The translations under genes and the position numbers were made by a program. This document shows, one piece after another, positions 4,770-25,254 of a stretch of 64,000 nucleotides of DNA; positions within the stretch are counted from its first letter, which is position 1; each line of letters starts with the position of its first letter. Below the pieces are notes generated by a model, which was not told the DNA's origin, did no database searches, and was given only the letters and a program-made list of their open reading frames with translations. The DNA is from a virus, in the IMG/VR virus record IMGVR_UViG_3300037193_001436, positions 1 to 64,000 of that record, one strand, 5' to 3'.

Positions 4770-5052
4770 GAGGGGCCTCCTGGAGAGACGAACGACCCCG
4801 CCCACGAGAGACGGGGTGGATGATGGATCGTCCGGCTGCGAGGGGGCTGCAGGTGCCCAACCCGACCTCTTCCAGGCTAGGGCGACTTCTCCTCAGGTTG
4901 TGAGGCCAGCCGACGCTCAGCCGCCTCCATCCGGGACACTGCCTCTTCGAACAGGTTCAGGTGGTCCCCACAGGGCACGCGCCACCACTCGTTGTCGTCC
5001 TCGTGGAACCGCTTCAGGAACTCGTCCAGGGGCGGGCTGACGTCCGGCACGA

Positions 5053-5376
5053 TCACTGAACTCTCCTCGGCAGCCGCCCGCCGACGGACCGGGCCCAGGC
5101 GTCGCCGACGTCGGTGCGGTCGTTGCTGTGCTGGGGCTTCCTGACGCCTTTCAGCGAGTTGGCGTGGTTCCACATCGCCGTGGCCAGGCCACGGCGCTGA
5201 TGGTCGTCATCGACGTCGATCTTGTACGTCCGGCCGGTGGTTCCCGACCAGTGCAGGTAGCCGACCTTCTCGCCCTCGTGGTACGCCGACACCAGGTGAC
5301 TCGGCTTCCGCTCGCCGGTGTCCTCAGTGCTGTACCGCAGCTCGTACTTGCCGAACTGGCCCGGCTGCAGATCCAT
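5053..5376 (-). CDS. GNAT-family acetyltransferase with N-terminal LxPxQF tag
   Basis: GGGAGG RBS; acetyl-CoA motif A 'IDVDDDHQRRGLATAMW'; begins MDLQPGQF. Confidence 0.75.
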   Translation of the reverse strand: MDLQPGQFGKYELRYSTEDTGERKPSHLVSAYHEGEKVGYLHWSGTTGRTYKIDVDDDHQRRGLATAMWNHANSLKGVRKPQHSNDRTDVGDAWARSVGGRLPRRVQ

Positions 5377-5908
5377 CACACCTCCCGAAGAATGAGGCCG
5401 GGCCCCCACCTGCGAAGAGAGGGCCCGGCTGGACGGGGCCTTGCCGCCGCGCGGCCCCGTACCGGGAGAGATTCGCTGCGCCTGGAACCACTCCCGGAGG
5501 TTGTCGCCCACGCCAGGGACACAACCAGCTCAAGTGAACTTTATCGGCTACCCCGGGTAGTCCGGTAGGAAGCGCAAGACGTCGACCATCTCCTGGGCGA
5601 ACTCGATGTCGGTTTCGTCGATCTGGGTGCAGGTCGCGGCGTCGTACATGCAGAAGCTGTCGGCGTGATACCTGCGGTGGTGGGCGATAGCTACTGCGAG
5701 CTGGTCGATGTCCACGGGCGTGTGCTTCGACCGGCGCAGGAACTGCGCAGGGGCCTTCATCGGGTCTTCCTCCCCGTTCGTGGGGCACCCGACATGCACC
5801 CCAAGCGTCGCCGGAGTGGTCCGGCCTTCACGAAGTTCTTACCCTGCCCGGCGGAGTTGCTAAACGCAAGCCGTTACGACTCGGTAACTCATCGCACAAG
5901 CGTTTGAA

Positions 5909-6211
5909 TCAGCACTTGCCCCAGGCGAATTCCCAGTCCTTCTCACCCATCAGCCGCACCAGGACCCCACCCTTCTGTAGTGCGGTGAGCGCATCGTAGA
6001 GGGCGTTGCCGGTGATGCCGTTGTGCCAGTTCCCACCGCGCTTGTCGGTGAACTCCGCGTAGGTACCGTCCGGCCACATCCCGAGCACGACGCCGAGATG
6101 CCAGGCTGCCTCATCCCACGGCACCAGGTCCGACAGCCGTTCACTCAGCCGGGCGACCATACGCACCTCGGCCTTCAGCGCATCGTTGACGTCGGCAACT
6201 TTCCTAGCCAT
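5909..6211 (-). CDS. Hypothetical protein
   Basis: ORF in operon. Confidence 0.6.
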   Translation of the reverse strand: MARKVADVNDALKAEVRMVARLSERLSDLVPWDEAAWHLGVVLGMWPDGTYAEFTDKRGGNWHNGITGNALYDALTALQKGGVLVRLMGEKDWEFAWGKC

Positions 6212-6542
6212 CGAACTGTATTCCGTTCTCTGCCAGCCAATCCTTCATCGGCTTGGGGCTCTTGTTGTGCTCGGCAAGCCACTGGTCGAGCCGGGCGTGC
6301 GCGCCGGGACCTGGCATGTCTTCGGGCCGGATCTCGACATCGAACTCCTCGTTGTAGCCCGGCCCGAAGCTACTACGTTCCAGCAGATCCCTGAAGCTCG
6401 TGATGTCGAACTCCGGGCAACGCTCGTCGCAGTCGACATCGCACCAACCGTGGCTCTTGCCTTCACACTCCCGCTCGGGACAGGTGGCGTCCGACATGAT
6501 CCTTTGGTGCTCTCGGCAACGACTTCCAAAGCAGTGGCTCAT
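6204..6542 (-). CDS. Cys-rich hypothetical protein
   Basis: ORF overlapping both neighbours. Confidence 0.55.
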   Translation of the reverse strand: MSHCFGSRCREHQRIMSDATCPERECEGKSHGWCDVDCDERCPEFDITSFRDLLERSSFGPGYNEEFDVEIRPEDMPGPGAHARLDQWLAEHNKSPKPMKDWLAENGIQFDG

Positions 6543-7081
6543 GCTGGCACTCGTCGACCTGGATCGGGATCCGGCATCTCTATGAAGCCGCCGTTACCGT
6601 CGTCCCAACCGCAGCGCTTACACCACGGGTATACGCGGCTGTGCCGCATGATGATCACGATCGAGGCGGTGGCCGGGATGAAGGTCACTACCGCGCTGAG
6701 ATCGTCGGACAGCAAGCGCCCCGTAACCACGTTGAACGCAATCCAAAGCACCAAGACAGCAGCCCAGCGCTTCAGCCCGCTGGCGAATAGCCAGTGGAAA
6801 GTCGCCAGGTAGCGCTCGTACTTCTCGGCCAGCGCCGGACCGTTCAGCGGCATCTCGGCGATGCAGGGCTCACACAGCGAGTTCTGGTGCGCGAACGTCC
6901 CGAAGCAGAACGTGAACCCTACGGTCAGGATCCCGGCGGCCAGAATGATCGACTTGGCCCGGTCCGGCAGCGGCGCGAACTGCGTGGCCAGAGCCACGAT
7001 GTTGAACCAGAAGATGATCCGCCACATGTGGTGGCCAGAGCGATGGACGAAGTGGCGAAACGATTCCCCGAAGTTCTTCAT
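6539..7081 (-). CDS. Membrane protein (about 4 TM)
   Basis: Four hydrophobic segments, two CxxC motifs. Confidence 0.65.
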   Translation of the reverse strand: MKNFGESFRHFVHRSGHHMWRIIFWFNIVALATQFAPLPDRAKSIILAAGILTVGFTFCFGTFAHQNSLCEPCIAEMPLNGPALAEKYERYLATFHWLFASGLKRWAAVLVLWIAFNVVTGRLLSDDLSAVVTFIPATASIVIIMRHSRVYPWCKRCGWDDGNGGFIEMPDPDPGRRVPA

Positions 7082-7154
7082 AGCCGATGACCGTAGAGAT
7101 CCGGTGTACCCGAAAGCAAGCGTGTCGCCTGTCCCGGACAAAGATGCACCAAAC

Positions 7155-7481
7155 TCATGGTGTAGCCTCCTCGCCGGAGCCCCCGGTCCCTGCGCCTGGG
7201 GGCTCCACCAGTTCCGGCTCCTTCGGCTCGATCCACATCCGCAGCTCGACGCCGATCGCGCGGGCGTAGCGCTGGACGGTGGTGACCTGGAAGTCGCCGC
7301 CCTCTTGTCCGAGACTCTCGAACGCCGACACCCGGTGCTGGGTCACACCCATCCGGCGAGCGACGTCGGCCTGCGTGATGCCCCGGCTCACCCGGAGGTG
7401 CACCAGGGTGGCGATCAGCCGGGCGCGGTCCGTCTCGTCCTCGAACTGCCCGACGCGGCGCAGCATCTGCTCCTCAGTCAC
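7155..7481 (-). CDS. XRE-family HTH protein
   Basis: 'LRVSRGITQADVARRMGVTQHRVSAFE...TVQRYARAIG'. Confidence 0.85.
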   Translation of the reverse strand: MTEEQMLRRVGQFEDETDRARLIATLVHLRVSRGITQADVARRMGVTQHRVSAFESLGQEGGDFQVTTVQRYARAIGVELRMWIEPKEPELVEPPGAGTGGSGEEATP

Positions 7482-7684
7482 CGCAGCGTCCTCCGTACCT
7501 GAGCGACCTGTTCAGGGGTCGTGCGGGATCTCAACGCCTTCGCACCCGGCGTACCCAACGACGAGCGTTCCAGCAGCTCAGCGAACGAGGGTTCGCGAGT
7601 GACCAGCTCCGCGCGCAGGTTCGCCAGCCGACGCCGGATGTCGTGCAACCGCAACCACGCCGCGTCCAGCTCATCCGGATTCAC
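7478..7684 (-). CDS. Hypothetical protein
   Basis: GTG start; 'FAELLERSSLGTPGAKALR'. Confidence 0.55.
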   Translation of the reverse strand: MNPDELDAAWLRLHDIRRRLANLRAELVTREPSFAELLERSSLGTPGAKALRSRTTPEQVAQVRRTLR

Positions 7685-8482
7685 GGGAGTCCTCGAACCA
7701 CTCCGGGCGCTCGCGGCGCAGCCGGTAGAACTCCTCCAGGTCAGCGTCGAGCTTGGCCTTGACCTCTTCGTAGTGCGCCCGCTTCTCCGGCGTATCCAGG
7801 TGCCGGTCACGCAGGTCGGCCCACTTGTGCCGCGTCATCCCCGTGTGCCTCTCGTGATCATCGTGTACGTGGCGAGCGCCGAGAGGATCACCAGCGCGAT
7901 CGCCGCCAGCAGGATCGCCAGCTCGCGGGCCAGGTCTATCCACCCCTTCAGCATTTCCCGCCACACAGACCCCTCACCTTTCCCGTCCAGGGAGGCCGCC
8001 CGGTTTGCGCCTAACCACGGGGTGAGTGTGATCAGCCGGGCGGCCTCGGTGCGGACCGGTCACACCTCACAACAAGTGACCGGGCTCACAGGTTCAGCAC
8101 CTTAGACCTGTTACACCGCCCGCATCTAGTCCGACACACAAAATCATCACGAGTGTGTCTGCATCCAGGCCCAGACCCGCAGCGCGTCCTCGCGGTAGTT
8201 GTCCCGGCCGGAGCAGACGTGCTCCGGCGACCAGGCCTCGCCGGTCGACACCAGGTCGAAGCAGCCCATCACGTGCTTCAACTGGCACTCGATGTGCTCC
8301 TGCACCGGGTACGCCTCGCCGTCCGCGCCGATGCCCATCATCGAGATGCCCCGATCGTGTGGCTCGATCAGCACCTCACAGAGGCTGCAGGCGTATCCCA
8401 CGGGCACCGGAACCCTCAGCGCGTCGTCCTCACAGACCGGCGCTCTCAGCGTCTCAGAGGGCCACGGAGCCCCACCACAACG

Positions 8483-8707
8483 TCATCGCTCACCCTCCCG
8501 ACGCAGGATCTCCTCGGCCCCCTGGACCGCTATCTGCTGCAGGTCGGCATGGAACTGCTTGGTCCGTATCCGGAAGTAGAACGCGAGCCCGGCCGTCAGC
8601 ACGAACACCACGATCACGATCAGCCACGTCGGCACCCCTACCCGGCCGAGCAGCATACCGACCACGAAACCGCCGGGTGCCGTCAGCAGCGGCCACCAGC
8701 GCTTCAC
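8483..8707 (-). CDS. Small membrane protein
   Basis: Two hydrophobic segments. Confidence 0.6.
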   Translation of the reverse strand: MKRWWPLLTAPGGFVVGMLLGRVGVPTWLIVIVVFVLTAGLAFYFRIRTKQFHADLQQIAVQGAEEILRREGER

Positions 8708-9003
8708 GGCGTGATCTCCGGCGCGTAGATGGTCGTCAGCGGCTCCGGCCCGTCATAGATCTGACAGTCGCACTGATAATCGCGGAACTTCTTGACGCTG
8801 AACCCAGTGTCCGGATCGGTCTCCCAGTACTCGGTGCCCTTGGCGTACATGCACTTGCCCCGGCCATCGACGTGCATCGATCGCACGTGTCCGCAGCCGC
8901 AGGTCGCGGGCTTGGATTTCTCGATCGTCGGCCGCTTCGCCTTCCGCCCGGTCAGATAGCCGATCGCCAAGGAAACAAGGGCGATCACAGCTCCCTCGAT
9001 CAC
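8704..9003 (-). CDS. Membrane-anchored Cys/His-rich protein
   Basis: N-terminal TM; CGCGH...H...C...CDC. Confidence 0.65.
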   Translation of the reverse strand: MIEGAVIALVSLAIGYLTGRKAKRPTIEKSKPATCGCGHVRSMHVDGRGKCMYAKGTEYWETDPDTGFSVKKFRDYQCDCQIYDGPEPLTTIYAPEITP

Positions 9004-9505
9004 TCGCCGTCCTCCTTGATCCGGCGGTGGATGTCGGCCAGACCGGCCTCGACGTCGTACGGCTCAGTGTCCGCCAAGTACTCGATCATCTCGTCGTACA
9101 GCTCCGGCAGCGAGATCGGCACCGGCGGGTCCGGCTCACTCATGTCACGTCCTCTCCTACGTGAAACGGGCCCCCTGCCTCAACCGGGGGCCCGTCGGGC
9201 CACAAGACCAGCTCGTGGCGGGGTAAATCAGACGCTACTCGCTTCAGCGCAGGATCGTCCACAACAGCACGGCCGCGATGATCACCGCCCATCCCTTGAT
9301 CAGCGCACCCGGGAACCCGCGCCACAGCTTGAGCCAGGTCCGGAACTCCCCGTCTTCCTTGTCCGCCATCTCGTCCCCCCGGACGTCATCCTCGAACTCG
9401 CCCTCCCACAAGGTGGCGTGGAACATCCACCACAGCGGATCGTCGGCGAGGTCTTCAATCTCCCCCATGCGAGACCTATCGGATTTCGGGCCCCGCCGTT
9501 ACACG

Positions 9506-9838
9506 TCAGTCGTCCGGCCCGCAGACGCGCTCGACGGCCTCCATGACCTTCTTCTGCCCGGCCGCAGTTCCCAGCTCCGAGCCGTCCATGTGCACGATCG
9601 CGTCGGCGACCTGGAACATCTTCTTCGGCACCGGTCGGTCGTCGATGACGATGGCGATGATCGGCTTGTCCATCATGATCGACAGGCCCAGCTCCAGGGC
9701 GTACTTGACGTCGTCGAGCGTGCTCGGGATCAGCGAGCCGGTCACGTCCGAGTCCCGGATCATCGGGATCAGGTTCGCTCGTGCGTCTTCGAGCCAGGCC
9801 TTGACGTCCGGGTCTTCCCACGGCGGCTGGTCGTTCAC
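9506..9838 (-). CDS. Hypothetical protein (possible nucleoside deoxyribosyltransferase-like fragment)
   Basis: 'ALELGLSIMMDKPII' resembles the NDT E-x-G motif. Confidence 0.5.
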   Translation of the reverse strand: MNDQPPWEDPDVKAWLEDARANLIPMIRDSDVTGSLIPSTLDDVKYALELGLSIMMDKPIIAIVIDDRPVPKKMFQVADAIVHMDGSELGTAAGQKKVMEAVERVCGPDD

Positions 9839-10092
9839 AGCTTCGTCACCGTCCCGTCCGGCCGGTAGATCTCCTGCTCGGTGCGGACCGAGAAGTGCGC
9901 CAGCGTCACATCCTTGCCGGACTGCCGGGCCAGCATCTTGGCCTTCGGCCGCAGGTCGCCGACCATCGCCAGGTCCGCACCCATCATCGGGAACGCCAGG
10001 TCCCCGGCCACGATCGCGGGCACTCCTTCGGTCCCGTCGTCGTCGACCACGATGAACGCGAACACCGACAGGATCTTCTCTTGACCGTCCAT
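9835..10092 (-). CDS. Hypothetical protein
   Basis: Overlapping start/stop in operon. Confidence 0.65.
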   Translation of the reverse strand: MDGQEKILSVFAFIVVDDDGTEGVPAIVAGDLAFPMMGADLAMVGDLRPKAKMLARQSGKDVTLAHFSVRTEQEIYRPDGTVTKL

Positions 10093-10319
10093 CAGATCCA
10101 CGTCTCCACGATCGCCGGGTCGTCGTTCTCGGCCCTGTGGATACACGTGTCGGCCTGCGCCGGTACCGCGTCGCGAGCGTCTGCGAGCGACTTCAATCCC
10201 TGGGCCAGCACCGGCCCCTTGTCGACCCGGCCTGGGCCGATCACCCACTCTCGGACGGCGTACCCGGGTTGGAGGTCGGTCGCGCCGGAGTAGATCGTGT
10301 ACTGCTTCGTATCCGCCAT
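10092..10319 (-). CDS. Hypothetical protein
   Basis: TAGGGT -10-like hexamer just upstream of ATG; ends 'DDPAIVETWI'. Confidence 0.65.
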   Translation of the reverse strand: MADTKQYTIYSGATDLQPGYAVREWVIGPGRVDKGPVLAQGLKSLADARDAVPAQADTCIHRAENDDPAIVETWI

Positions 10320-10682
10320 GCGCGGCACCCTAGCGGATTCGTCGGCTATGCTGCGCCAGGTTGTGTTGATTTGGTTGGGCGACCACATCGAGGGTCCGGC
10401 TTTGGCGAGCCGGGCCCTCACCAATTTCCGGCCGACCCTTAACTGCCGGGCCCGATCTCTGCCTCTTATAGGTATGAGCACCTCACAGCCCACGCCAGAA
10501 GAAGAGACCGGGCCCGAGACATGGGTCCCCGAAGCCATCGCCGAGCAGGAGGAGTACATCCGCCGGATCAGCTCCTGCACCGGCGTCCTCGGCCTGCCGC
10601 ACGCCTACGAGCGGTTCGCCGCCGCGTCCGGCGTGTACTACAACGCCTGCACCCGCTGCCGGGTTACGCAGACCCGCGAAGA

Positions 10683-11216
10683 TTACGAACGCAAGTCCCG
10701 CAGGTGACTCCAGCCGGGGACGACGGCCGAGACTGAGCCCTCGTCCTCGGCGACGTTCTGGTAGTAGTAGCCGCTGCGGGCCGTGCCCCGCTTCAGGTGA
10801 CCGGCCATCCGGCCGTTGGCCGCGAAGTCCTCGTGTGGGCGGTCCGGGGTGTTGGACATCCGGCCGGTGATCTCGACCGGGAAGATCGCGGGCTTGACGT
10901 GCATCGGGACCGAGGACTTCTCCGGGTCCGGGTAGTAGTCCCCACCCTTGCCGTGGTCGACGACATGTCCTGTCGGCGAGCCGCCCAACTTCGAGAGCGT
11001 GCCATAGCCAGCCAGCAGCGTCTTGCCGTACTCCTGCGTCCCGTCCCAGTCCTTGCCGTCGGCCCGGCGGCCGATCCTGGCGTTCAAGGCCTGCCGCGCA
11101 GCCTCCCGCGTCCCGATGTGGACGCCGTGCGTTCCCGGGGTGTCGGTCGGTCCGCCATACGCAGAACCGTGCCACCACTTGAACTGATCGGTGTTGAGGT
11201 GATCGGACCCGGCCAT
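10683..11216 (-). CDS. ADP-ribosyltransferase-like protein with N-terminal LxTxQF tag
   Basis: Starts MAGSDHLNTDQF; 'WWHGS...GVHIGTREAA...YYQNVAEDEGS' resembles ART-fold H-G-[ST] proteins; leaderless (GATGAT-N6-ATG). Confidence 0.5.
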   Translation of the reverse strand: MAGSDHLNTDQFKWWHGSAYGGPTDTPGTHGVHIGTREAARQALNARIGRRADGKDWDGTQEYGKTLLAGYGTLSKLGGSPTGHVVDHGKGGDYYPDPEKSSVPMHVKPAIFPVEITGRMSNTPDRPHEDFAANGRMAGHLKRGTARSGYYYQNVAEDEGSVSAVVPGWSHLRDLRS

Positions 11217-11365
11217 AGGTCCATCATCCCTTAGGCTGCTCAGGTTTCGGCAGTTCGAGAGCGCACCCGCGCTCGTGCATGATCCCGCCGTTCTCCCGCA
11301 GGAAGGCGCACGGCGGGCACTCGCAGACCTTCTCGGCGTTGTGCTCGCAGTACGTCGAGCAGTAC

Positions 11366-11623
11366 CTAGGCATTCTGGGCCTCGGCGTACAGGCGGCCGT
11401 AAGAGGACAGGACGTAGTACCGCCGTCGCGGCTGGCCGTGCTTCTCCGGCGCGGCCCAGTCCGAGAACACGATCCCCCGGACCTCCCAGTGCGCGAGCGC
11501 CACGTAGACGTCCCCGCTCTTCAGCCCGGTCGCCTTCATCAGGTCGTAGACGTAATGCTGCTTGCCATCCGGCTCCGCCACGAGGAAGTTCAGCAGCTTC
11601 GCCTCGGCGTCATGCTTGCTCAT
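11366..11623 (-). CDS. PadR-family winged-helix regulator
   Basis: 'YVYDLMKATGLKSGDVYVALAHWEVRG...PRRRYYVLS'. Confidence 0.85.
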   Translation of the reverse strand: MSKHDAEAKLLNFLVAEPDGKQHYVYDLMKATGLKSGDVYVALAHWEVRGIVFSDWAAPEKHGQPRRRYYVLSSYGRLYAEAQNA

Positions 11624-11976
11624 GGCAACTTCACAGCCTTGGCATCGACGACCTCGTGCAGGACGTCGTAGGGGTTCAGGATCGCCGAGAGGTTCAGTTT
11701 CGCGTGCGCCAGCCCGCCGACGAAGTCGACGCCCGGCACCGTGCACTCGTAGATGTAGCCGCCGTCCGACAGCGGTACGACGCGGCGGATGCCGCGCTTG
11801 GTCAAGTGCGAGTCCGCCTCGCGGTTGAGTTCGCCGTGCCGCAATTCGAAACGCAGCGTGCACCGCCACACCGGGTACCCGCGCTCGGCCTCAGCCGCCA
11901 GGCCCTCGATCTCGGCGTCGCTCATCTCCCGGCCGGTCTTGGTCACGTACGGCTCGATGCTCTCGTCCATGCCCAC
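11620..11976 (-). CDS. Hypothetical protein
   Basis: ORF with RBS, overlaps PadR gene by 4 bp. Confidence 0.6.
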   Translation of the reverse strand: MGMDESIEPYVTKTGREMSDAEIEGLAAEAERGYPVWRCTLRFELRHGELNREADSHLTKRGIRRVVPLSDGGYIYECTVPGVDFVGGLAHAKLNLSAILNPYDVLHEVVDAKAVKLP

Positions 11977-11989
11977 AACAGCCCCTCTC

Positions 11990-12757
11990 CTAGTTCCACC
12001 GCGACGGGTCGACGATCTGGGACCTCGCCACCTTGGTCCGGAACATCTGGTGCCTCGGCGTGCCCGGCTTGGCGAAGAGCTGCACGACGACCGGCAGGCT
12101 CCCCCGCATCTTCTCCTCCATCACCTGCAGGGTCGCCATGTCCATGTGCCACCGCGCCCTCTCCAGGTCGCCGTCGACCAGATCGTAGGCCCACGCCGGG
12201 ACGATCTGATCCACCGTCATCGACGCCATGGCCGCCAGCAACCCGTCGGGCACATCGCCGCTGAACTCCATATCCTTCGAGTCCCGCGCCAACGGCGTCC
12301 AAGTCACCGTCCGGCCGTCCACCTCGTACGGGCGCACGATCGTCTGGACGTCCCCGGCCCGGTTCATGACATGCGTGATCAGCGCCTCGGAGACGGTCCC
12401 ATCGAAGCCGTGCTCCTCGACGTAGGTCTGCATCGCACCCGGCCCGTCGCCGACGGCGGCCTTCCAGAACTCGCCGGTGCGAGGGTCCTTCACGGCGTCC
12501 TCCCCCCGGCCCTGAGCCAGGTAGGTGTCGTGCGAGACCGACATGACGTCCGGGCCGAAGCCCTGCGCGGCAATGCGCGCGATCCGCAGCATGGCGTCGC
12601 GGTGCGGCGGCAGCGTGATCAGCGCCACGGGGTCGTCACCCCGGTAGCAGATGATGGTCGTCTCCAGGTCGACCCGGCCCTTGTGCTTGCGGACCATCTC
12701 CTCCTTGATCCGGCGCACCATCCGTGCGGCCTCGTCGACCGCGTCGTCGAGCTTCAA
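11990..12757 (-). CDS. Hypothetical protein
   Basis: 255-aa ORF with RBS. Confidence 0.75.
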   Translation of the reverse strand: MKLDDAVDEAARMVRRIKEEMVRKHKGRVDLETTIICYRGDDPVALITLPPHRDAMLRIARIAAQGFGPDVMSVSHDTYLAQGRGEDAVKDPRTGEFWKAAVGDGPGAMQTYVEEHGFDGTVSEALITHVMNRAGDVQTIVRPYEVDGRTVTWTPLARDSKDMEFSGDVPDGLLAAMASMTVDQIVPAWAYDLVDGDLERARWHMDMATLQVMEEKMRGSLPVVVQLFAKPGTPRHQMFRTKVARSQIVDPSRWN

Positions 12758-13099
12758 CTCCCCGCTCCCTCTCCTCGATCTAGGCCCGACAGCCTAGCGC
12801 CCGAGCCGGGAAACCGATACTCTGCGTGGCAGCCGCCGCAGTCCCTCTGAGGGCTCCGCATTTGACCCGACGCACAGCCGCGAGACTATATCGGCCACAG
12901 GCCGTGAACCTCTGGCACCGCTGGTAGGCACAACCGGAGTTAACCCCGCGACGAGGGCTCGGCGGCCCTCCGTACCCAGGACAAATGGTCCACGGCCTGC
13001 ACCACGTCCTCTACCGGCATGAGCCCGGCGGAATCGAGGGTGACCTGATCCGCAAGGTCCAGCCCGGCCGCCAGGCCGTCGGCGTAGGTCGAGCGCCGA

Positions 13100-13855
13100 G
13101 CCGTACGCCAAAAGGCGTGCAGGTCACCGTATTTCCACAGGTAGCTCAGCACGACCTCTAGCCCGACCAGGCGATCTCCTAATTCCAAACCCGATATCCC
13201 AACGCGAGTAGCACGAAGACCACGAACCAGAATTCCAAAAGGTGCACCACCGCGCCGACGAAGCACCACAGCATGACGAACCCGAGCAGCGCCAGCTCCC
13301 GTGCGACCTCCCCCAGCGCCCCCGCTGCCCCCCTCGCCCCGTCGCTCACCCGGCCCTCCTCAAGGCACTGCAGACTCGACCCAGCTCGCCTGGGTGGACA
13401 CTGTCTGTACGCGTATGCCCCCTACCCTAGCGCTGAGACCAGGCCCCCAACCCTTGCCACGGGCAACTTAAGGGTACCCCCCTCGCATATATTCATGGTT
13501 TCGATTTGGCATGAGTATGCATTTCGCTGTGCTGTCAAGGGGCACAAGCTGCCAATCGAGCGCGTCAGGTTGACATAATCGTACTTACCGGCGTTATCAC
13601 GGGCCTGTTTTGCTGCATGCATGAGTTGTTACACCTGTCAACCCCCACACGGGATGAATAACTATGTGATGCATGAATAGAGGGCACTGGCTCGGTTTGG
13701 CATTTACGAGAGCGCATTTCTGTGACCTGGTTATGGATGCATTTCTGGCTATATGCAGTTAGTAATTGCGCACGCTGGCGCATTGTTGGGCCGTGTGTGC
13801 TGCATTGTGTGCGTGTGGTGCTGCATTCTCTGGTGTCATTCATGCTCGATCACGC
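13100..13855. other. Lower-GC, apparently non-coding region
   Basis: Visibly AT-richer than flanks, no credible ORF, repeated GCATT/TGCAT. Confidence 0.55.
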
Positions 13856-14245
13856 TTACAGCGATCCCCGATTTGGGTTTCCATTTAGGTGTGCGCGCAT
13901 GGCGTTGGCCTGGGCAGGTGTGAGGGTGAGGCCGAGGTGTTCGCGCGCCCACTCCTGCAGGGTGTCTGTGTCGGCGTCGGCCGGGATGAGCAGGTGCCGC
14001 ATGCGGGGCCGGTTGTGGTGGCGCACGAACGTGCCCTGACTGGTGCTGACGACCAGGCCCTCCTCACGCAGAGCTGCGACCGCGTCCAGGGCGGTCTTGG
14101 CGCTGACGTGGTAGATGCGCGCCAGCGGGATGATGGGGGTGAGCTGTTCACCGGGCCCGGGTACGCCGGACAGGATCTGGGCGCGCAGCAGCGCGGTGAG
14201 CTGATCCCGCAGCGGGGTCGGGTCATCAGGGTCCAGTGCGGCCAT
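13856..14245 (-). CDS. GntR-family HTH regulator
   Basis: 'TPLRDQLTALLRAQILSG..PGEQL...LARIYHVSAKTALDAVAALREEGLVVSTSQGTFV'. Confidence 0.85.
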   Translation of the reverse strand: MAALDPDDPTPLRDQLTALLRAQILSGVPGPGEQLTPIIPLARIYHVSAKTALDAVAALREEGLVVSTSQGTFVRHHNRPRMRHLLIPADADTDTLQEWAREHLGLTLTPAQANAMRAHLNGNPNRGSL

Positions 14246-14882
14246 CCCCGTCACCCTCATGCCGGTAGTGCTCGTGCTCGGGGTAGTCGAAGCAGTCACA
14301 CAGGTCGGTGCTCTTGCAGTCCCGGAAGGTCTCACCCGAGTGCGGGCACAGTCCCTGGGCCTCCTGGCGCACCGCGTGACACACCCACTCGTGCTGCTGC
14401 TCGGCCAGCGGCCTGGTGCTCGTGACCCACTTCCGCACCGACTCGCCGCGATAGAACACCATCGACTCGTACAGCAGTGGTCGGCCGTCGCGGGTGTAGT
14501 GAGCTGTGTCCGTCATGAAGACCGTGGAGACCCTGTAGTCGTCCCCGATTCGGGTGTCCCCGATCCTGCGCGCCTCGTAGTCGTTGGTGAGGAGCGAGGC
14601 CTGCATCATCCCGATCGGCTTGCCGTCGAGCCCGTAGTGGAGTGCGTGCATCGGGCTGGCCTCGTTGGGATCGAGCATCCACGGTGGGAGCTTCTGCACC
14701 AGGTCGAACCACAAAGGAGCGCTGAACTGCGGCCAGCTCCTGGCCAGGCTCTTGGCACGCTCCCACTCACGACGTCGCCGGTGGTTGGACCGCTGTACGC
14801 GTGAGCCATGCTTGCCCTTGGCAACATATGGCGTGCGGTCGTAGTGGATGATCACGTTCGTCGCCTCGCAGTCAGGTACCAA
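14226..14882 (-). CDS. Hypothetical protein (start uncertain)
   Basis: ORF with 'RVSTVF...LLYESMVF' phage-like motif. Confidence 0.55.
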   Translation of the reverse strand: MVPDCEATNVIIHYDRTPYVAKGKHGSRVQRSNHRRRREWERAKSLARSWPQFSAPLWFDLVQKLPPWMLDPNEASPMHALHYGLDGKPIGMMQASLLTNDYEARRIGDTRIGDDYRVSTVFMTDTAHYTRDGRPLLYESMVFYRGESVRKWVTSTRPLAEQQHEWVCHAVRQEAQGLCPHSGETFRDCKSTDLCDCFDYPEHEHYRHEGDGDGRTGP

Positions 14883-15070
14883 ATCAAATCATCAAGTGTG
14901 TCATAGCACCCGAGCGTGTGGCTGCCGACAGCCAGGTACAGCAGGGTGGCGCGTACATGGGTGCGGATCAGCTCACGGTCCCCGGCACCGCCGTACAGGA
15001 TCGTGCTCATCGCCTCGGTGCAGGACTCGATCAGGTGTTCGATATCGGCTTCAGTGGTCATGCCCGTCAT
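14852..15070 (-). CDS. Hypothetical protein
   Basis: ATG 15070 downstream of 17-bp repeat. Confidence 0.5.
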   Translation of the reverse strand: MTGMTTEADIEHLIESCTEAMSTILYGGAGDRELIRTHVRATLLYLAVGSHTLGCYDTLDDLIWYLTARRRT

Positions 15071-15107
15071 GGTGACCCCGATTTGGGTTTCCTGGGCAGG
15101 GGCCAGT

Positions 15108-15464
15108 TCAGCCGGTGTAGCGCTCATCCCTGCGGATGCGGTAGGGCAGCGGTAGTCCGGCGGCGTGGGCAGCCATGGCCCGGTGGTGGCCGTCATGGAT
15201 CGAGTAGTAGTCATCGTGGGCGTCGACCTCGATGGGCTCCTCGATCCTCCCCGATTTGCGCACCTGCTCGGTGAAGTGGTCCAGGTACGGCAGCGGCCCG
15301 CCAGCCTCACGGTGCGACGTACGCAGCGTGTCGGCGTTGTTGTAGCGCTCGAAGCGTGAGCGTGCTGCCTGGTCGCCGATGCTGCCGGGGAAGTCACCAG
15401 CGCGCAGCAGGCCGACCTCGTCAGGGCTGAACTGCTGGGGGCTCAGGTGCTCGCTGGCTGCCAT
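15108..15464 (-). CDS. ParB/Sulfiredoxin-fold protein with N-terminal LxPxQF tag
   Basis: 'GRIEEPIEV...YSIHDGHHRAMAA'; starts MAASEHLSPQQF; leaderless (GATACT-N6-ATG). Confidence 0.8.
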   Translation of the reverse strand: MAASEHLSPQQFSPDEVGLLRAGDFPGSIGDQAARSRFERYNNADTLRTSHREAGGPLPYLDHFTEQVRKSGRIEEPIEVDAHDDYYSIHDGHHRAMAAHAAGLPLPYRIRRDERYTG

Positions 15465-15763
15465 GTCTCCAGTATCACCCCCGCTCAGCCTTCTCCCGGT
15501 CGAGGACCGAGTTCACCTTTTTGAAGGCCTCGCGGGTCTCCTCCCAGGGAGCATGCACACGGACCAGGCGGGCGAACTCATCCCAGGCCGCCAGGTACTC
15601 CTCTGAGAGCTGCGGTTCATCGTTGCTCATAGTTGTCCCTTCAGCCACACCAAGAAGAGCCCGAAAACCACACCGATGCCTATGGCAACAGCTATCCGTA
15701 CCGTCCAGTCCTCGATGGTGTCCAGCCATCCCTTGCCCGGTTTGGGTTTGTGGTGATCAGGCA

Positions 15764-16084
15764 TCAGTTGTCCGCCAAGTACCTGCGAAGCCATGCCGCC
15801 TGCCAGGGCTCGATCTGCAGCCCAAGCTCCTCCCGCACCCAGTCAATCAGCGCCTCGTTCGGGTCCAGCGGCCTGAGCTGCCACTCCATACCGAGCGCCG
15901 AGGCCATGGCGACCCAGTGCCCTACGCGGCCGTCGGTCTTGCCGTTGAGCATCTGGCTCATGTGCTTGTCAGTGACCCCGATCTTGCGAGCCAGCTCGCT
16001 CTGCTTCATCTCCTGGCGCTTCAGCTCCTCGCGGATCGCCCGGCGCTGTGGTGCCCAGGCGGTGGTGGTGTCGATCGTGGTCAT
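15764..16084 (-). CDS. XRE/Cro-like HTH protein
   Basis: 'IREELKRQEMKQSELARKIGVTDKHMSQMLNGK'; divergent from + strand cluster. Confidence 0.85.
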   Translation of the reverse strand: MTTIDTTTAWAPQRRAIREELKRQEMKQSELARKIGVTDKHMSQMLNGKTDGRVGHWVAMASALGMEWQLRPLDPNEALIDWVREELGLQIEPWQAAWLRRYLADN

Positions 16085-16250
16085 GGGGGCAGGCTAGAGC
16101 CCTCTAGTGCCCGATTTCTACAGTTGGGTCACCGGCGTGTCACAACTAGTACTCGTGGCATGATGCTGCTTCCTGGGTGCGGGCTGTGGTGTCAGGGGAG
16201 ATCCCTGGCCGCCAGTCGCCGGTCCGTAGAGAACCGTCGATGCCAAGGTC

Positions 16251-16634
16251 ATGAATCACCCGCACCCAGGGCCACAGGAGAGGAGTGGGGATGTGCGTGC
16301 AAGGGTGATCGGGGCCATGATCGGCCGGTACCGGGCGGTGATCAACGGCGGCCTGATGGTGGCTGTGGTGCTGCTGATGGCCTATATCGGAGCGCAGCTC
16401 GATGACGAGTGGTGGCGGGGTGGAGTGCTGGCGCTGCTCGTGCTGCTGTCGGCCCTGCTCGGTGCCCTGACCATGCTCGGCCTGGTCCTGGAGTTCAGGC
16501 TCAACCAGGTGCGGCGCTACCGGCTGGCCTGGCTGTCAGCCCGTCGTCGAGCGCTGTACGCCGTCAAGGCGTTCCGTGCCGAGGCGAAGGCTGTACAGCA
16601 GCTAGAGGCCAAGACTCACCAGACCCTCAACTAG
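16251..16634 (+). CDS. Membrane protein (true start probably somewhat downstream)
   Basis: Two TM segments, basic C-terminus. Confidence 0.6.
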   Translation: MNHPHPGPQERSGDVRARVIGAMIGRYRAVINGGLMVAVVLLMAYIGAQLDDEWWRGGVLALLVLLSALLGALTMLGLVLEFRLNQVRRYRLAWLSARRRALYAVKAFRAEAKAVQQLEAKTHQTLN

Positions 16635-16865
16635 TGGACACCGCAACCATGCTCAGCTCGGCCGACCGTGAGTGGCGCGAGCTGGCCACGAAGCTCCTGC
16701 GAGGCTACATCCCCCGGCACAGTACGGGCTGGGTCCTCGTCGAACTGCACCGGCTCGATCGAAAGGCCAGACGCCAGGAGGCCTACCACCGGCGCATGCT
16801 CAAGCTACAGGCCGAGGCCGCCGAGCTGATCCCAAATCGAAACGACTACCACCGCTGGAGACCTG

Positions 16866-17333
16866 GTGACCCCATCACCTGAGCGATCGCACTACATCCG
16901 CATCGAGCTACCCCATGACGCCACGCCCGAGGAGATCGGCAACCTTGAACAGGCGGTCATGGAGGTGGTGGAGAAGAAGATCGAGGAGTTCGACTACGAC
17001 ATCTTCGTAACCGGCGGTGCGTGGTATCCACCAAAGGAGGAGTCCACCGAGCCGATACCTGTTGCCTTGAGCAAGCTTCGTGCCTTGGTGTATGCCCGGC
17101 CGTTGCACGACAACCCGGTAGACGCAGCGCTACTGCGTGACCAACTGCAGCACCTGCAGGACCTCGGCATGAGCCAGACCGACCTGCAGATCCACCTGGA
17201 GTGCGAGCGCTCCATCAATGAAGTTGCCCTGCGCAACATGCAGGTAGAGGACAATCTGCTGACCGCACTCGACATGGTGATGGGCCACGTTGCGCCCCTG
17301 ATGCGCGTGAAGTTCCAGGCGGGTACGCAATGA
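16866..17333 (+). CDS. Hypothetical protein
   Basis: ORF in + strand operon. Confidence 0.65.
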   Translation: MTPSPERSHYIRIELPHDATPEEIGNLEQAVMEVVEKKIEEFDYDIFVTGGAWYPPKEESTEPIPVALSKLRALVYARPLHDNPVDAALLRDQLQHLQDLGMSQTDLQIHLECERSINEVALRNMQVEDNLLTALDMVMGHVAPLMRVKFQAGTQ

Positions 17334-17560
17334 GCGCACGAGTCATCATCGACCTGTTGCCGTCTGGTCGTACCGGCCATGTCTACATCCAGGTGTCCAG
17401 CGAGGTGACCGATGGTGGCACCCTCACACAGCCGGAGATCGAGTTCACCCTGGAGCAAGTGCTGGCTGGGCTGCGGTCAGGAGACATCAAGCTGAGAGAG
17501 CCCACGACGGTCACCCGGCAGGAGTCATCCGTCGGCAAGATGCCCAAGGCAACAGAGTGA
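17330..17560 (+). CDS. Hypothetical protein
   Basis: 4-bp overlaps. Confidence 0.6.
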   Translation: MSARVIIDLLPSGRTGHVYIQVSSEVTDGGTLTQPEIEFTLEQVLAGLRSGDIKLREPTTVTRQESSVGKMPKATE

Positions 17561-17829
17561 CTGACTGGGACGAGCTGGACGACAGCGGTATGCACGTGCA
17601 CCTTCGGATGGGGCTGACCAAGGAGGGTCACGGTCCGGCTGATCCGCCGGACCCGAACTTCGATCACTGGGGTTGCTGGTGTGCTGATCCCAGGTGCCCT
17701 GGACCACCAGATGACGCTGCCTTGAAGTACTGCGGGGATATCGCGTGCCCTGGTTCAACACGATGCACCGACCCAGATTGCCGCAGTACGCGAGAATGGC
17801 TCAGCGGCGGCGGGGCTTCAACCCCGTAA
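17557..17829 (+). CDS. Cys-rich hypothetical protein
   Basis: 4-bp overlap with upstream gene. Confidence 0.55.
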   Translation: MTDWDELDDSGMHVHLRMGLTKEGHGPADPPDPNFDHWGCWCADPRCPGPPDDAALKYCGDIACPGSTRCTDPDCRSTREWLSGGGASTP

Positions 17830-18193
17830 GGTCGACGACCTCCTGGATGCCGTGCTTGTCATGGGCGATCACGGCATCGTGGCCTGCGGCAACGATCTTG
17901 TCCGAGAGATCTCTGCCAGTAGCACCGAACCGCTTGGAGAGCTGGTGCTTCCAGTTGCTCTCCTCCTGCCAGCCACCGCCGTACTCGATGTGCAGCGGGT
18001 TCTTGAAGCTGACGTCACCGGTCTCGAACAGATCCTTGTCGTAGTTGAACCCAGGGTTCGCCTGACCGAGGTAGCGCCCGTGCGGCTCGATGTGCTGGCC
18101 GTACTGCTCACCGAAGTCGGGCGCTTTGCCCTTGCGCCGGACGTAGTGCAGATTGAACTGCTGCGGCTGAAGGTTGTCGGAGGCACCCATCAT
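17801..18193 (-). CDS. ART-PolyVal-like small protein with N-terminal LxPxQF tag
   Basis: Starts MMGASDNLQPQQF; 'VSFKNPL...IVAAGHDAVI...EVV' resembles polyvalent-protein ART-like domain. Confidence 0.55.
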   Translation of the reverse strand: MMGASDNLQPQQFNLHYVRRKGKAPDFGEQYGQHIEPHGRYLGQANPGFNYDKDLFETGDVSFKNPLHIEYGGGWQEESNWKHQLSKRFGATGRDLSDKIVAAGHDAVIAHDKHGIQEVVDLTGLKPRRR

Positions 18194-18675
18194 TCCCACA
18201 CCTTCTGTGTGTCACCGCGACGAAGCCGTGCGGTTTTCATTGCAGCGGTGTTGTCCCTGACGATCGCGTCCATCGCACTCTGGTGATCGAAGTAGTGCTC
18301 GACCGGTACCAAACGACTGCCATGTTCCAGCGCTGTCACCGAGCGATGGTGTCCGTCGTAGAGAGACGCCACACCGCTCGGTAGGTGTGTCACCTTCACC
18401 GGCGTATGGATGCCACCTTCAGCTTCGACCTGCTCAGACACACGATCCAGCTTGCTCGGGCCTGGCGTGTGGCCGTGCAATGCGACCTTCTCCGCCTGGT
18501 GTGCGTACGCATTGCGCATCTGCTTGGGGACGTCACGCATGTGGCCGTCGAAGTCGGCCGCCATCATGCCCCCGATCTCGTGCGGGGTCATGAACATGGG
18601 GAGCTGCTGACCAGGCTCGATGGCAGGCTGGTACTTCGGGAACTGACGCGGGCTCAGGTGCTCGGCTGCGGTCAT
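18190..18675 (-). CDS. ParB/Sulfiredoxin-fold protein with N-terminal LxPxQF tag
   Basis: 'GGIHTPVKV...LYDGHHRSVTA...VPV'; starts MTAAEHLSPRQF; ATGA overlaps. Confidence 0.8.
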   Translation of the reverse strand: MTAAEHLSPRQFPKYQPAIEPGQQLPMFMTPHEIGGMMAADFDGHMRDVPKQMRNAYAHQAEKVALHGHTPGPSKLDRVSEQVEAEGGIHTPVKVTHLPSGVASLYDGHHRSVTALEHGSRLVPVEHYFDHQSAMDAIVRDNTAAMKTARLRRGDTQKVWE

Positions 18676-19139
18676 CGTCGGCCCTTCCACACGTGCTCTT
18701 CGGGGAAGACGTGTGACGGGTGCATGTTGGCGGGGTAGTGCTCTGCCGTGGCGGGAGGTAGATGTCCCATCTGGCCGCCCAGCCTGGCCCGGACGCCTGG
18801 CTCTATCTGGTCGAACGTCGTACGCCATACCCGGACAGGTGTGTACTCGTGTCCTTCGAGGTGTGCTGCCGTGACCCGGTGGTTGCCGTCGTCAACGACA
18901 GCCCAACTGCGCTTGGGGTCGTAGTCGACGATCGCGGGCTCGGTGTAGCCCTGGCCGGAGCGGAGCAGTTGCCGGTAGTGCTCGACGCGCTCCGGGATGG
19001 TGTCATTGCCGTGCATCGTGCGCAGAAGGCTGGTGCGTACGTAGCCGACCACCGAGTGCTCCGGCGGTACACCAGGCTGACCCCGGTCACCGTACTGGAT
19101 GATGTTGGGGTGGAACTGTGCCGGGTTGAGGTTGCTCAT
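18672..19139 (-). CDS. ParB/Sulfiredoxin-fold protein with N-terminal LxPxQF tag
   Basis: 'EPAIV...VVDDGNHRVTAAHLEG...PVRV'; starts MSNLNPAQF. Confidence 0.8.
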   Translation of the reverse strand: MSNLNPAQFHPNIIQYGDRGQPGVPPEHSVVGYVRTSLLRTMHGNDTIPERVEHYRQLLRSGQGYTEPAIVDYDPKRSWAVVDDGNHRVTAAHLEGHEYTPVRVWRTTFDQIEPGVRARLGGQMGHLPPATAEHYPANMHPSHVFPEEHVWKGRR

Positions 19140-19144
19140 GGCAA

Positions 19145-19441
19145 TCAGTACGCCTCTTTGGTGTACTGGACGTCGTAGGTGTCAAGCTCGTGGCCGTGGT
19201 GCTTGGCCAGGACGTGGCCGACGTCTGTGGCGTTCTTCGCCTTACCCGCGTAGTCACCGAACTCATTCTCGACGTGCCACCGGCTGCCCTGCCGGGTGCC
19301 GATGCCGGACCAGCCGGTCGGGTGCTCCTTGGTTGCCGGACCGGTGACCAGCACCTTGCCCTTGTCGACCTGGTCGGCGTACACCGTCGGCCGACGCGTG
19401 AACTGCTCACCCAGGTTGCTCGGAGGAGTCGGCATGTCCAT
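19145..19441 (-). CDS. Hypothetical protein with N-terminal NLGEQF tag variant
   Basis: First gene of four-gene operon; leaderless (CAAGAT-N6-ATG). Confidence 0.7.
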   Translation of the reverse strand: MDMPTPPSNLGEQFTRRPTVYADQVDKGKVLVTGPATKEHPTGWSGIGTRQGSRWHVENEFGDYAGKAKNATDVGHVLAKHHGHELDTYDVQYTKEAY

Positions 19442-19657
19442 GCCTCAATCTTGCCCCGGACCCGGCTGTCCATGGTAGGTTCACCAACTGCTGGCCCTCG
19501 GATCCTTGCTCAGCAAGTCCGATGGTTGAAGTTCAAAGCAGTACCGTGCAACACAACTGCAAGACCAAGCCAAGTACCAAGTGCATAACCTCCTTTCTGG
19601 AATCCAAATTGCTCTTGGCGGACTGCGCGTGCATATGGGCCTTGTGCAATACAGGGA

Positions 19658-19840
19658 CTACTCGCGCCGGGGGCCAGCACCCTCCTCCTTGGTCATGGTC
19701 AGGTGGAAGGTCGCCCGCCACCCGGCCTTCTCGCACTCGCTGGCCAGCTCCCACAGGTGCCGTCCAAGCACCTCGGCGACCTCCTCGTTCGGCGGGATCG
19801 GCGCGTTGATGGTGATGGTGACCGAGTTGTGTTCAGCCAT
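19658..19840 (-). CDS. Hypothetical protein
   Basis: Small ORF in operon. Confidence 0.55.
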   Translation of the reverse strand: MAEHNSVTITINAPIPPNEEVAEVLGRHLWELASECEKAGWRATFHLTMTKEEGAGPRRE

Positions 19841-20270
19841 CCTGGTTCCCCTTCAGGTTGACGTACTCCGCTACCAGGTCTCGCAGGGCGTCAGCGGCGT
19901 TCTCCCGGCCTTTGCGGCCCATGTAGGCCCTAGGGTCCACCCGGCGTCCCATGCGCTCTGAGAGCTTGCTCAGCTCTTCGAACGGGTACGGGCGGTCCTC
20001 GGCCGGACAGCCGACACAGCGGCCGTCGTCGGCCAGCGCCACGTGGCCGTCACGGGCCATACAAGGCGTCATGTGGCTCCTGGCACGTGGACAGTCGACC
20101 GACCAGCGTTCACCGCTCACAGCGGCTCCTGTGACGTCTGGTGGCACGTAGCAGCTCGGCCTTCCGCTGGCAGGCGTAGGACAGTCGCATGTAGACGAAT
20201 GCCTCGAACTCGTGCCGGGCCGGATCGTCCTCGGCCAGCCCGGCGTACCAGGCCTGCATCTCGTCCCAGG

Positions 20271-24185: not shown

Positions 24186-25169
24186 TCAGGCGGCCTGGCG
24201 CTCCTGGTGGCTCTCTGCGGCCTCGGGAGCGTCGGTGGAGTCCTCCTGGGCCTCGACGGCCGGAGAGCGCCCCAGGATGAGGTCTGCGGCCCGCTGGGCG
24301 GCACCGGCGGCCACGACCACGGCCTTCGGGTCTTCCTTGATCTCGCGGACCCAGCCCGCCAGGTACGCGGCGCTGTTCTCCAGGGCGGTCTCGATGCCGG
24401 TCTCGGCCTGCAGGAAGGCCGAGGTCATCTCGGCGACCAGCTCCTCGCGGCCGTACTCGTGGTCACCGAAGTTCTGCCCGAACTTCCGGGCCAGCCGGGA
24501 CTCGTGGCCGGTGCTGTGGCCCATCTCGTGGAACAGGGTCGCGTAGTACTCGTCGCCGTTGGCGTACGCGGTCCGCTCGGGGACAGTGACGATGTCGGTG
24601 ACCGTGTTGTAGAACGCCCGGTCGCCGCCGTGACGCAGCTTCGGCCCGTTCTCGAAGTAGGCCGCGATGATCGCCTCGGCCGACTCGATCGGCTCGTGCT
24701 CGTGACCCTCGTCGGCCTGCCAGTCGGCAACCCGCTTGGGGAGCTTGACGTCGTCGGTCTGCTCCAGGTTGAACACGATGTAGTGCCGGAGCATAGGGAT
24801 GGTCTTCTTGACCGGCTTGCCGGTGGCCTCGTCGATCTCGGTCTTGGTGAACGTCTTCCAGAACACGACCAGCGTGCCCTTTTCGCCCTTGCGGACCGAG
24901 CCGCCGCGCTCCTTGGCCTGGTTGAAGGTCAGCCAGAACGGCGAGCTGTAGCCGCCCTCCATCGCCGCGATGGCGAGCAGCAGGACGTTGACGCCACGGT
25001 ATGGGCGGCCGTCCAGGTTCTGCGGGCGGCCGGAGCGGGAGTTCCACGGCTTGCGCCACGGCGCGGTCCCGGCCTCCAGCGCGGCCACCATCTTGTCGGT
25101 GACCTCCTGGTAGATGTCGCGCTTCGGCGCGTCGGCGGTCTTACGGGTCTTGCGGGTCGTGCGGGCCAT
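24186..25169 (-). CDS. ardC: ArdC-family antirestriction ssDNA-binding/zincin protein
   Basis: 'DIYQEVTDKMVAALEAGTAPWRKPW', 'YRGVN', 'WLTFNQAKERGGSVRKGEKG', 'YYATLFHEMGHSTGH', 'YGREELVAE'. Confidence 0.93.
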   Translation of the reverse strand: MARTTRKTRKTADAPKRDIYQEVTDKMVAALEAGTAPWRKPWNSRSGRPQNLDGRPYRGVNVLLLAIAAMEGGYSSPFWLTFNQAKERGGSVRKGEKGTLVVFWKTFTKTEIDEATGKPVKKTIPMLRHYIVFNLEQTDDVKLPKRVADWQADEGHEHEPIESAEAIIAAYFENGPKLRHGGDRAFYNTVTDIVTVPERTAYANGDEYYATLFHEMGHSTGHESRLARKFGQNFGDHEYGREELVAEMTSAFLQAETGIETALENSAAYLAGWVREIKEDPKAVVVAAGAAQRAADLILGRSPAVEAQEDSTDAPEAAESHQERQAA

Positions 25170-25185
25170 GGTGCGCTCCCTCAGT

Positions 25186-25254
25186 GCGTGGTGGTTGTGG
25201 CACAAGTAAAGCATGGGTGCGAGTCATGTGTCTACTTGACTCACACCCATGCTT
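25186..25254 (-). promoter_or_regulatory. Repeated hairpin-promoter cassette, copy 2
   Basis: 18-bp inverted repeat AAGCATGGGTGCGAGTCA/TGACTCACACCCATGCTT around TGTGTCTACT (TAGACA on - strand). Confidence 0.8.

Follow-up and report, generated by a model that had tools for sequence, protein, structure and literature searches.

A short N-terminal peptide on dissimilar small proteins of BRock-like actinophages: a candidate address tag for polyvalent-type effectors

We analysed a stretch of viral DNA (the window), the first 64 kb of the 107,209-bp single-contig IMG/VR record IMGVR_UViG_3300037193_001436 (GC 0.66), in which seven proteins encoded between 5053 and 19441 carry the motif L-x(2,3)-Q-F inside their first 14 residues. 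The motif and the residues that lead up to it are referred to here as the tag, and positions marked "genome" are those of the whole record. All seven open reading frames (ORFs), which an earlier sequence-only reading had pointed out, were verified together with their starts; they lie on the minus strand, as do nearly all genes of the phage, have good coding scores, and are the following:

5053–5376, minus strand: mini-GNAT, 107 amino acids; tag in residues 1–8 (5353–5376), a short form in which M precedes L by two residues.
10683–11216, minus strand: 177-amino-acid protein, possibly of the ADP-ribosyltransferase (ART) fold; tag in residues 1–12 (11181–11216).
15108–15464, minus strand: stand-alone ParB/Srx protein, 118 amino acids, with a DGHHR motif; tag in residues 1–12 (15429–15464).
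17801–18193, minus strand: 130-amino-acid domain common in polyvalent proteins, with a putative divergent ART-like fold; tag in residues 1–13 (18155–18193); last gene of a four-gene operon.
18190–18675, minus strand: ParB/Srx paralogue, 161 amino acids; tag in residues 1–12 (18640–18675); its stop overlaps the following gene's start.
18672–19139, minus strand: ParB/Srx paralogue, 155 amino acids, with DGNHR and PHROG ParB-like matches; tag in residues 1–9 (19113–19139).
19145–19441, minus strand: 98-amino-acid protein, first gene of the operon; variant tag L-G-E-Q-F behind a longer Pro-rich lead (19400–19441).

Functionally, the labels first given to these proteins held for the GNAT and the ParB/Srx proteins and in part for the two ART-like ones. 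The 5053–5376 protein scored at or above the curated Pfam cut-offs (Acetyltransf_7, 27.3 bits against 27; Acetyltransf_1, 25.2 against 20.7), and an orthologue with the full tag is encoded at L003:328, on a metagenome contig described below. Profile and structural-model matches confirm 15108–15464, 18190–18675 and 18672–19139 as stand-alone ParB/Srx domains: 15108–15464 had a PHROG ParB-like match (1.4e-5) and an AlphaFold2 (AF2) model that matched sulfiredoxin, ParB, KorB and SbnI, 18190–18675 was similar to it (BLASTP 4.7e-9) and has an orthologue at L003:991, and the family profile matched SbnI in the PDB (6.8e-5), with free serine kinase and ParB also matched. A [DE]G[HN]HR motif is conserved in the ParB/Srx tagged proteins, its first residues differing in some relatives. 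The ART-like label stands as a consistent structural lead and lacks a family assignment, as neither protein had a Pfam match. For 10683–11216, which also had no match in PHROG, the leads from an Atlas structure search were ART-PolyVal, RES and TNT, aligned from residue 11–12 with TM 0.44–0.52. For 17801–18193, the AF2 model had a pLDDT of 88.5 overall, and its structural matches were weak (Foldseek E ≥0.14; VIA Z ≤4.6) but almost all to ART-fold chains; a chain of the cyanophage A4 pre-ejectosome was also among these weak matches (VIA Z 4.1). One BLAST cluster (E ≤1e-3) joins 17801–18193 with Arr-like tagged proteins of related phages, and Pfam Arr-ms, the rifampin ADP-ribosyltransferase family, matched four tagged proteins of the related genome G003 from residue 12 (paralogues at L159:5729-6719 and L160:6537-6866, three of the four in tandem). 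As phage cargo, such small Arr-like ARTs may have targets other than rifamycins. The 19145–19441 protein had no match to any family in Pfam, PHROG and further searches, and has an orthologue with the same variant tag (L003:27).

Across the ~188 predicted proteins of the whole genome, the pattern L.{2,3}QF matched 15 times, and seven of these matches lay in the first 15 residues, compared with a mean of 0.44 and a maximum of 3 in 2000 within-protein shuffles; given 15 matches, the N-terminal placement has a binomial P of 1.4e-4. The leucine codons of the tag copies vary (CTG, CTC, CTT and TTG), as do other codons, and because synonymous codons differ between copies, selection appears to act on the peptide, as had been proposed. 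Evolutionarily, L, Q and F of the tag are kept in orthologues of 17801–18193, and in an alignment of 13 ParB/Srx members the only conserved parts are the tag and the catalytic core, the tag most strongly of all, with its L and Q invariant and F present in at least 90%. The companion claim, that the motif recurs at C-termini, fell within chance, with three matches in C-terminal regions (38474–38725 and 48922–50463, both named in the earlier reading, and the gene at genome 87991–88500, outside the window) against 0.67 expected and up to 5 in the shuffles; 38474–38725 has a weak coding signal, and the terminal LDPQF encoded at genome 87991–88500 is not conserved in four homologues. Two other ORFs begin with partial versions and were not counted as tagged: 5548–5760 starts with M-K-A-P-A-Q-F, and 52051–52287 starts with M-R-Q-P-Q-F and has D-N-L-Q-P at residues 27–31.

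A codon-level pattern scan of IMG/VR with a reading-frame filter was used to find further tagged genes, and three long records were retrieved: G001 (81 kb, GC 0.44) and, both with terminal repeats, G003 (112 kb, GC 0.61) and G004 (103 kb, GC 0.655). Including the seven above, the curated catalogue holds 45 tagged proteins on 15 contigs, with the 12-residue consensus M-[AST]-A-[SQA]-[DE]-[NH]-L-[SN]-P-x-Q-F; the M stands exactly six residues before the L in 31 of the 45, and five carry a short variant, L-G-x-Q-[FW]. The tagged proteins are all 44–177 amino acids long and all single-domain, unlike multi-domain polyvalent polypeptides, and they have no common trend in charge or isoelectric point. 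Stripped of the tag, the cargos form 20 BLAST clusters (E ≤1e-3), namely ParB/Srx (13 members), the Arr-like proteins with the 17801–18193 family (7), GNAT (5), a family marked by HRG...G.HW (3), the 19145–19441 family (2) and 15 singletons. Each genome has three to nine tagged genes, the kinds varying freely, and tandem runs comprise four genes in this genome, eight in one stretch of G001 and seven in L003, a 6.3-kb metagenome contig on which start and stop codons overlap or are closely spaced and the seven genes are orthologues of the 19145–19441 protein, the GNAT, four ParB/Srx proteins and the 17801–18193 protein.

The phage is a myovirus, as PHROG and Pfam scans revealed a tail sheath along with terminase, portal, scaffold and major capsid protein (MCP). 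The same scans recognised a serine integrase (38888–40372), a recombinase, DNA polymerase I, a transglycosylase of the DpdA type and ArdC; a plus-strand frame open at the start of the record suggests that the record is circularly permuted. By MCP, the closest cultured phages are the Streptomyces myoviruses BRock, LuckySocke, Alone3, GiJojo and pSt2308 (73–75% identity). The core in common with BRock, LuckySocke and pSt2308 extends from ~42 kb to 102 kb of the genome, and the accessory arm of 46 kb includes the tagged-gene region. With an MCP that is 70–81% identical in G001, G003, G004 and L062, and with terminase, portal, sheath or DNA polymerase homologues in L053, L130, L031, L054, L127 and L067, every typed tag-bearing contig belongs to one lineage of BRock-like myoviruses spanning GC 0.41–0.67 (L099 and L110 were not typable). 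BRock, LuckySocke and pSt2308 themselves have the same core and no tagged gene. Among 50,697 GenBank phages, tblastn with four tagged proteins found no tagged homologue, and both this search and megablast with 5000–20000 returned nothing or only untagged distant homologues; a single-protein query for related loci in IMG/VR returned nothing, and an alignment query in metagenomes returned L003 and L010. No accessory gene was found that is present in all tag-bearing genomes and absent from their tag-free relatives, and a phage-encoded receptor would therefore have to be a core protein. ArdC was considered as the receptor and rejected, being absent from the tag-bearing G001 and G004. In 301 Streptomyces genomes, a codon-restricted DNA pattern of the tag gave 18 matches, fewer than a reversed-pattern control (~70) and none of them N-terminal. 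A literature search found no paper describing this motif, and we know of no clamp-binding, SSB-tail, FtsZ-tail or proteasome-docking motif that fits the order L...P.QF at an N-terminus.

The tag is established as a portable N-terminal module on stand-alone polyvalent-type domains. Profile matches of the 17801–18193 family begin at position 10–14, directly behind the tag, distant stand-alone homologues have different N-termini and no tag, and in one distant relative (P0137) the tag is followed by six extra residues before the domain starts. Residues 1–10 are modelled by AF2 with low confidence (46 for 17801–18193 and 59 for the ParB/Srx protein), and in the ART-like model as in the ParB/Srx one, strand 1 begins at the tag's F. 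The proposal that the set amounts to a polyvalent protein split into tagged parts is likewise supported, as the cargo domains occur untagged and fused in giant polyvalent proteins, and the GNAT, ART and ParB/Srx repertoire is that of polyvalent cargo. The 17801–18193 family has 980 representatives at E ≤1e-3, mostly embedded in proteins of 300 to 4861 amino acids; in two actinobacterial polyvalent proteins (P0020 and P0049) a GNAT very like that at 5053–5376 is fused to the 17801–18193 domain, untagged, and a further carrier is a 1150-amino-acid multidomain protein of a Streptomyces plasmid. In the podovirus MW202647.1 (L001:502-3384) the domain forms the C-terminus of a 960-amino-acid protein flanked by very large ORFs, which hints, together with the weak pre-ejectosome match, that it may ride on ejection proteins in podoviruses; a PHROG scan of the 960-amino-acid protein gave no match, and its suspected ejection role is unproven. 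A homologue in Gordonia phage Skog was considered as a tagged protein and set aside, its tag not being convincing. Actinobacterial polyvalent proteins have a different short motif, approximately [ST]-A-T-x-F-F-[RK]-Q or (V/A)(A/S)FF(R/K)(E/Q), repeated before each domain and at the N-terminus in Streptomyces sp. cg35 plasmid pRLB1-9.1 (L015:5832-10930), P0015 and P0017. Two neighbouring ORFs of the plasmid hold six copies between them; this motif may be an MPTase cleavage site or another domain handle.

The placement of tagged genes differs among the relatives. Several lie in late head–neck operons: two tagged genes stand between homologues of a 271-amino-acid and a 169-amino-acid neck-region protein in L025/L062, with 4-bp or 1-bp overlaps on both sides, two GNAT-like tagged genes occupy the same 271/169 arrangement in L054, and one lies near a homologue of the 169-amino-acid neck protein in L031. 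In G004/L098, two follow fibre-like genes between the 169-amino-acid neck homologue and the sheath, a tagged gene of L130 begins 3 nt after the terminase, and two in L053 form a small opposite-strand cassette with the terminase on one side and the portal on the other. In the present genome, the four-gene operon is preceded by the following region:

19442–19657, minus strand: upstream region of the four-gene tagged operon, 216 bp, with an operator-like site at 19465–19487.

This site, ~46 nt before the operon's start codon, has an exact 11-mer (TTGGTGAACCT) in common with a site at 797 and resembles a related site at genome 106778, being a degenerate copy of the operator-like sites around the start of the record; the sites at 797 and genome 106778 adjoin palindromic operators near putative regulator genes. 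What these intergenic motifs imply about promoters or timing is ambiguous.

From these observations, our preferred reading, which we hold tentatively and at a little short of an even chance, is that the tag addresses effectors to a common partner in the phage core, probably in the head, for delivery when the phage next infects. The 12-residue peptide would be a portable address tag, the same docking handle on many small unrelated effector enzymes, and it would bind a single common partner from the lineage's conserved core genes, most likely a head component such as the inner face of the MCP, the scaffold or the portal. The procapsid would close around the docked enzymes, which would be delivered together with the DNA, and the separate tagging of each domain would do the job that is done elsewhere by stringing domains into one polyvalent protein. 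The observed part comprises a modular, conserved tag confined to one lineage, cargo families that elsewhere occur fused, and tagged genes that some relatives place in late operons; that the tag binds a head protein and that the enzymes are packaged and ejected is what we infer from these. Restriction to one lineage over a wide GC range, with no accessory gene tracking the tag and no host gene found with the N-terminal pattern, argues that the partner travels with the phage core, and virion loading seems the best reading in view of T4 and P1 as precedents, of the small size of every cargo and of insertion into late head–neck operons. Iyer, Burroughs, Anand, de Souza and Aravind (2017) argued that polyvalent proteins are delivered with the DNA, and applied the same logic to solo GNATs encoded beside late structural genes (PMC5512222). 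In a more specific and more doubtful form, the tag may be an unprocessed, encapsulin-like loading peptide that docks any small enzyme onto a head protein of the BRock-like actinophage core, yielding an exchangeable, "distributed" polyvalent arsenal carried to the next host; with equal reserve, that arsenal would consist of ParB/Srx kinase-like proteins, Arr-like ARTs, GNATs and a dozen families without assignment. By analogy, encapsulin-type docking is the mechanism we hold most likely if the receptor is the MCP. Tag-like patterns are present in two head proteins, where they may be coincidental and are not used as evidence: the scaffold (genome 91447–92265) has a conserved C-terminal I-A-x-M-[SND]-x-x-[EDT]-[YF]-A-K, and the MCP (genome 90383–91378) has two L-x-x-x-Q-F segments, ILRFEQF, invariant across the lineage, and a second segment, ALTASQF.

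Among known systems, the capsid-targeting sequence (CTS) of phage T4 is the closest in function and the polyvalent class the closest in domain content. The CTS targets proteins to the scaffolding core and is then cut off by the prohead protease. Like the tag, it is a short N-terminal peptide that is the only common feature of otherwise unrelated small proteins (IPI, IPII, IPIII and Alt); the two differ in that the CTS is removed by a prohead protease whereas the tagged phage has no recognisable one, and packaging is demonstrated in T4 whereas here it is inferred. To our knowledge, the T4 consensus bears no resemblance to the tag. The T4 internal proteins share only the CTS, and the CTS-bearing set comprises diverse, fast-changing small anti-host proteins, one ADP-ribosyltransferase among them (PMC3012670). 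Polyvalent proteins combine two to fifteen effector domains in one polypeptide (PMC5512222). Their domain repertoire is like that of the tagged set and its neighbourhood (ParB/Srx, ART, GNAT, MPTase/ArdC and the 17801–18193 domain), but their domains are fused and untagged, whereas here each is a separate protein of at most 177 amino acids with its own tag. The Dar proteins of phage P1 are anchored on the inner capsid surface, loaded in order via capsid-bound anchors and co-ejected with the DNA (PMC12810830), but they rely on dedicated anchors (DarA and Hdf), the cargo is large, and no common short tag is described for them (PMC12810830). No counterpart of DarA or Hdf was found in the tagged phage. 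In encapsulins, a short disordered terminal peptide docks unrelated enzymes on the inner face of an HK97-fold shell; encapsulins are non-viral and their peptides are mostly C-terminal with another consensus, whereas the tag is N-terminal on phage proteins. In MuF-toxin fusions of temperate phages, which Jamet et al. are said to have described in 2017, effector domains are reportedly attached to a head-associated delivery module; there the whole MuF domain is that module, whereas no scanned protein of the tagged phage had a MuF match. With single-domain proteins, a peptide unlike the T4 sequence as we know it and no sign of a processing protease, the tagged set belongs to neither the T4 CTS class nor the polyvalent class.

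Chance or simple paralogy, in which the seven proteins would be recent duplicates, is very improbable and can be rejected: three of the seven are indeed ParB/Srx paralogues, but the shuffles never reached the observed count, the GNAT, ParB/Srx, Arr-like and several unassigned families are dissimilar beyond the tag (hence the 20 clusters), and distant homologues of the same domains are untagged. A serious rival, although we think it unlikely, is that the tag is a short linear motif by which the enzymes dock on a single conserved protein or complex of the host (such as the ribosome, RNA polymerase, a defence hub or the replisome), so that they act in the infected cell with no packaging. The low-confidence and probably flexible N-terminal part of the tag is typical of docking motifs, the tagged genes of this genome lie among small accessory genes and regulators with an operator-like site at the operon, and near-identical tags over GC 0.41–0.67 would suit a very conserved host target. 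If the target were in the host, however, the tag would be expected to spread among unrelated actinophages, yet it occurs only in one lineage where this could be typed and not on the homologues in GenBank phages; placement in late neck or terminase operons of several relatives would be odd for early-acting enzymes, and the Streptomyces genomes gave no sign of host proteins using the handle.

The tag could instead signal processing, stability or regulation, as an N-terminal degron or as the target of a protease such as the phage's ArdC-type metallopeptidase, or be a mere favourable structural start, readings that we consider rather improbable. By our own reading of the consensus, and as a weak lead, L-[SN]-P-x-Q-F fits a helix capping box with a hydrophobic staple, both AF2 models have the F at the beginning of strand 1, an MPTase-PolyVal peptidase is among the phage's products, and the other pre-domain motif of actinobacterial polyvalent proteins is a possible cleavage site. 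But a 12-residue consensus at a fixed distance from the Met, over at least five folds in one lineage, is not expected of a structural start, G001 and G004 have tags and no ArdC, and cutting 12 residues off a stand-alone protein would have no evident purpose. We likewise think it improbable that the tag binds a non-structural adaptor encoded by the phage, or other tagged proteins, in a non-covalent cytoplasmic multi-enzyme complex without packaging. The tandem genes with overlapping or closely spaced start and stop codons would fit such a complex, and a phage-encoded partner would suit the restriction to one lineage, but no accessory gene is common to the tag-bearing genomes and missing from tag-free relatives, and three to nine freely varying tagged proteins per genome are unlike a fixed composition.

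Several points weigh against loading into the virion. The head functions without tagged genes, as the tag-free BRock, LuckySocke and pSt2308 demonstrate, a gene inserted in a late operon is not necessarily that of a virion protein, and the stretch of accessory arm between DpdA and the terminase holds most tagged genes of this genome (G000), of G001 and of G003. The operator-like site hints that the four-gene operon may be expressed early or under regulation, which the gene positions in this genome would suit as well. No MuF (SPP1 gp7-like) domain was matched among 30 head-region and accessory proteins scanned, and no prohead protease family was matched among head-module proteins or is annotated in LuckySocke, although a divergent one is possible; with neither recognisable in the lineage, a processing step of the T4 style is unlikely.

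As an observation, the N-terminal tag is well supported, and by a simple N-terminal pattern it picks out candidate effectors, injected or host-directed, in at least 20 sequence clusters, mostly without assigned function. If it is a loading signal, actinobacterial phages would follow the capsid-targeting principle of T4 by means of an unrelated peptide and without an evident protease step, and the delivery of domains of giant polyvalent carriers as separate small proteins would be explained. Were the encapsulin-like form true, the tag would be a bioinformatic flag for new injected effectors and a tool to load foreign proteins into actinophage capsids. Even if the partner is a host protein, one handle on many enzymes would point to a single hub attacked by the lineage. 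At 12 residues and portable, the tag is directly usable in pull-downs and reporter fusions.

One untagged neighbour is of note as context, outside the tag set:

24186–25214, minus strand: untagged ArdC (ArdcN + MPTase-PolyVal; Pfam 8e-44 and 6e-40).

This is a stand-alone polyvalent-type phage gene that joins a single-stranded-DNA-binding ArdcN domain to an MPTase-PolyVal metallopeptidase; in a comparison with three further tag-bearing genomes, it had a homologue in G003 alone, directly behind two tagged genes. Between 22543 and 41620, a recurrent promoter-like cassette consists of TTGACA/TAGACA in an inverted repeat followed by a CCACCACGC box and a ribosome-binding site; the CCACCACGC cassette precedes ArdC and several highly codon-adapted genes without assigned function, and precedes no tagged gene in this genome. 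A weaker, partial look-alike without the CCACCACGC box lies upstream of the terminase operon (genome 101057–101126). Around the start of the record, operator-like sites TAGTTGKTRAACCTGTCATGAC, with CTGTCATGACAG palindromes, overlap sigma-70-like promoters at 755–797 and genome 106746–106778.

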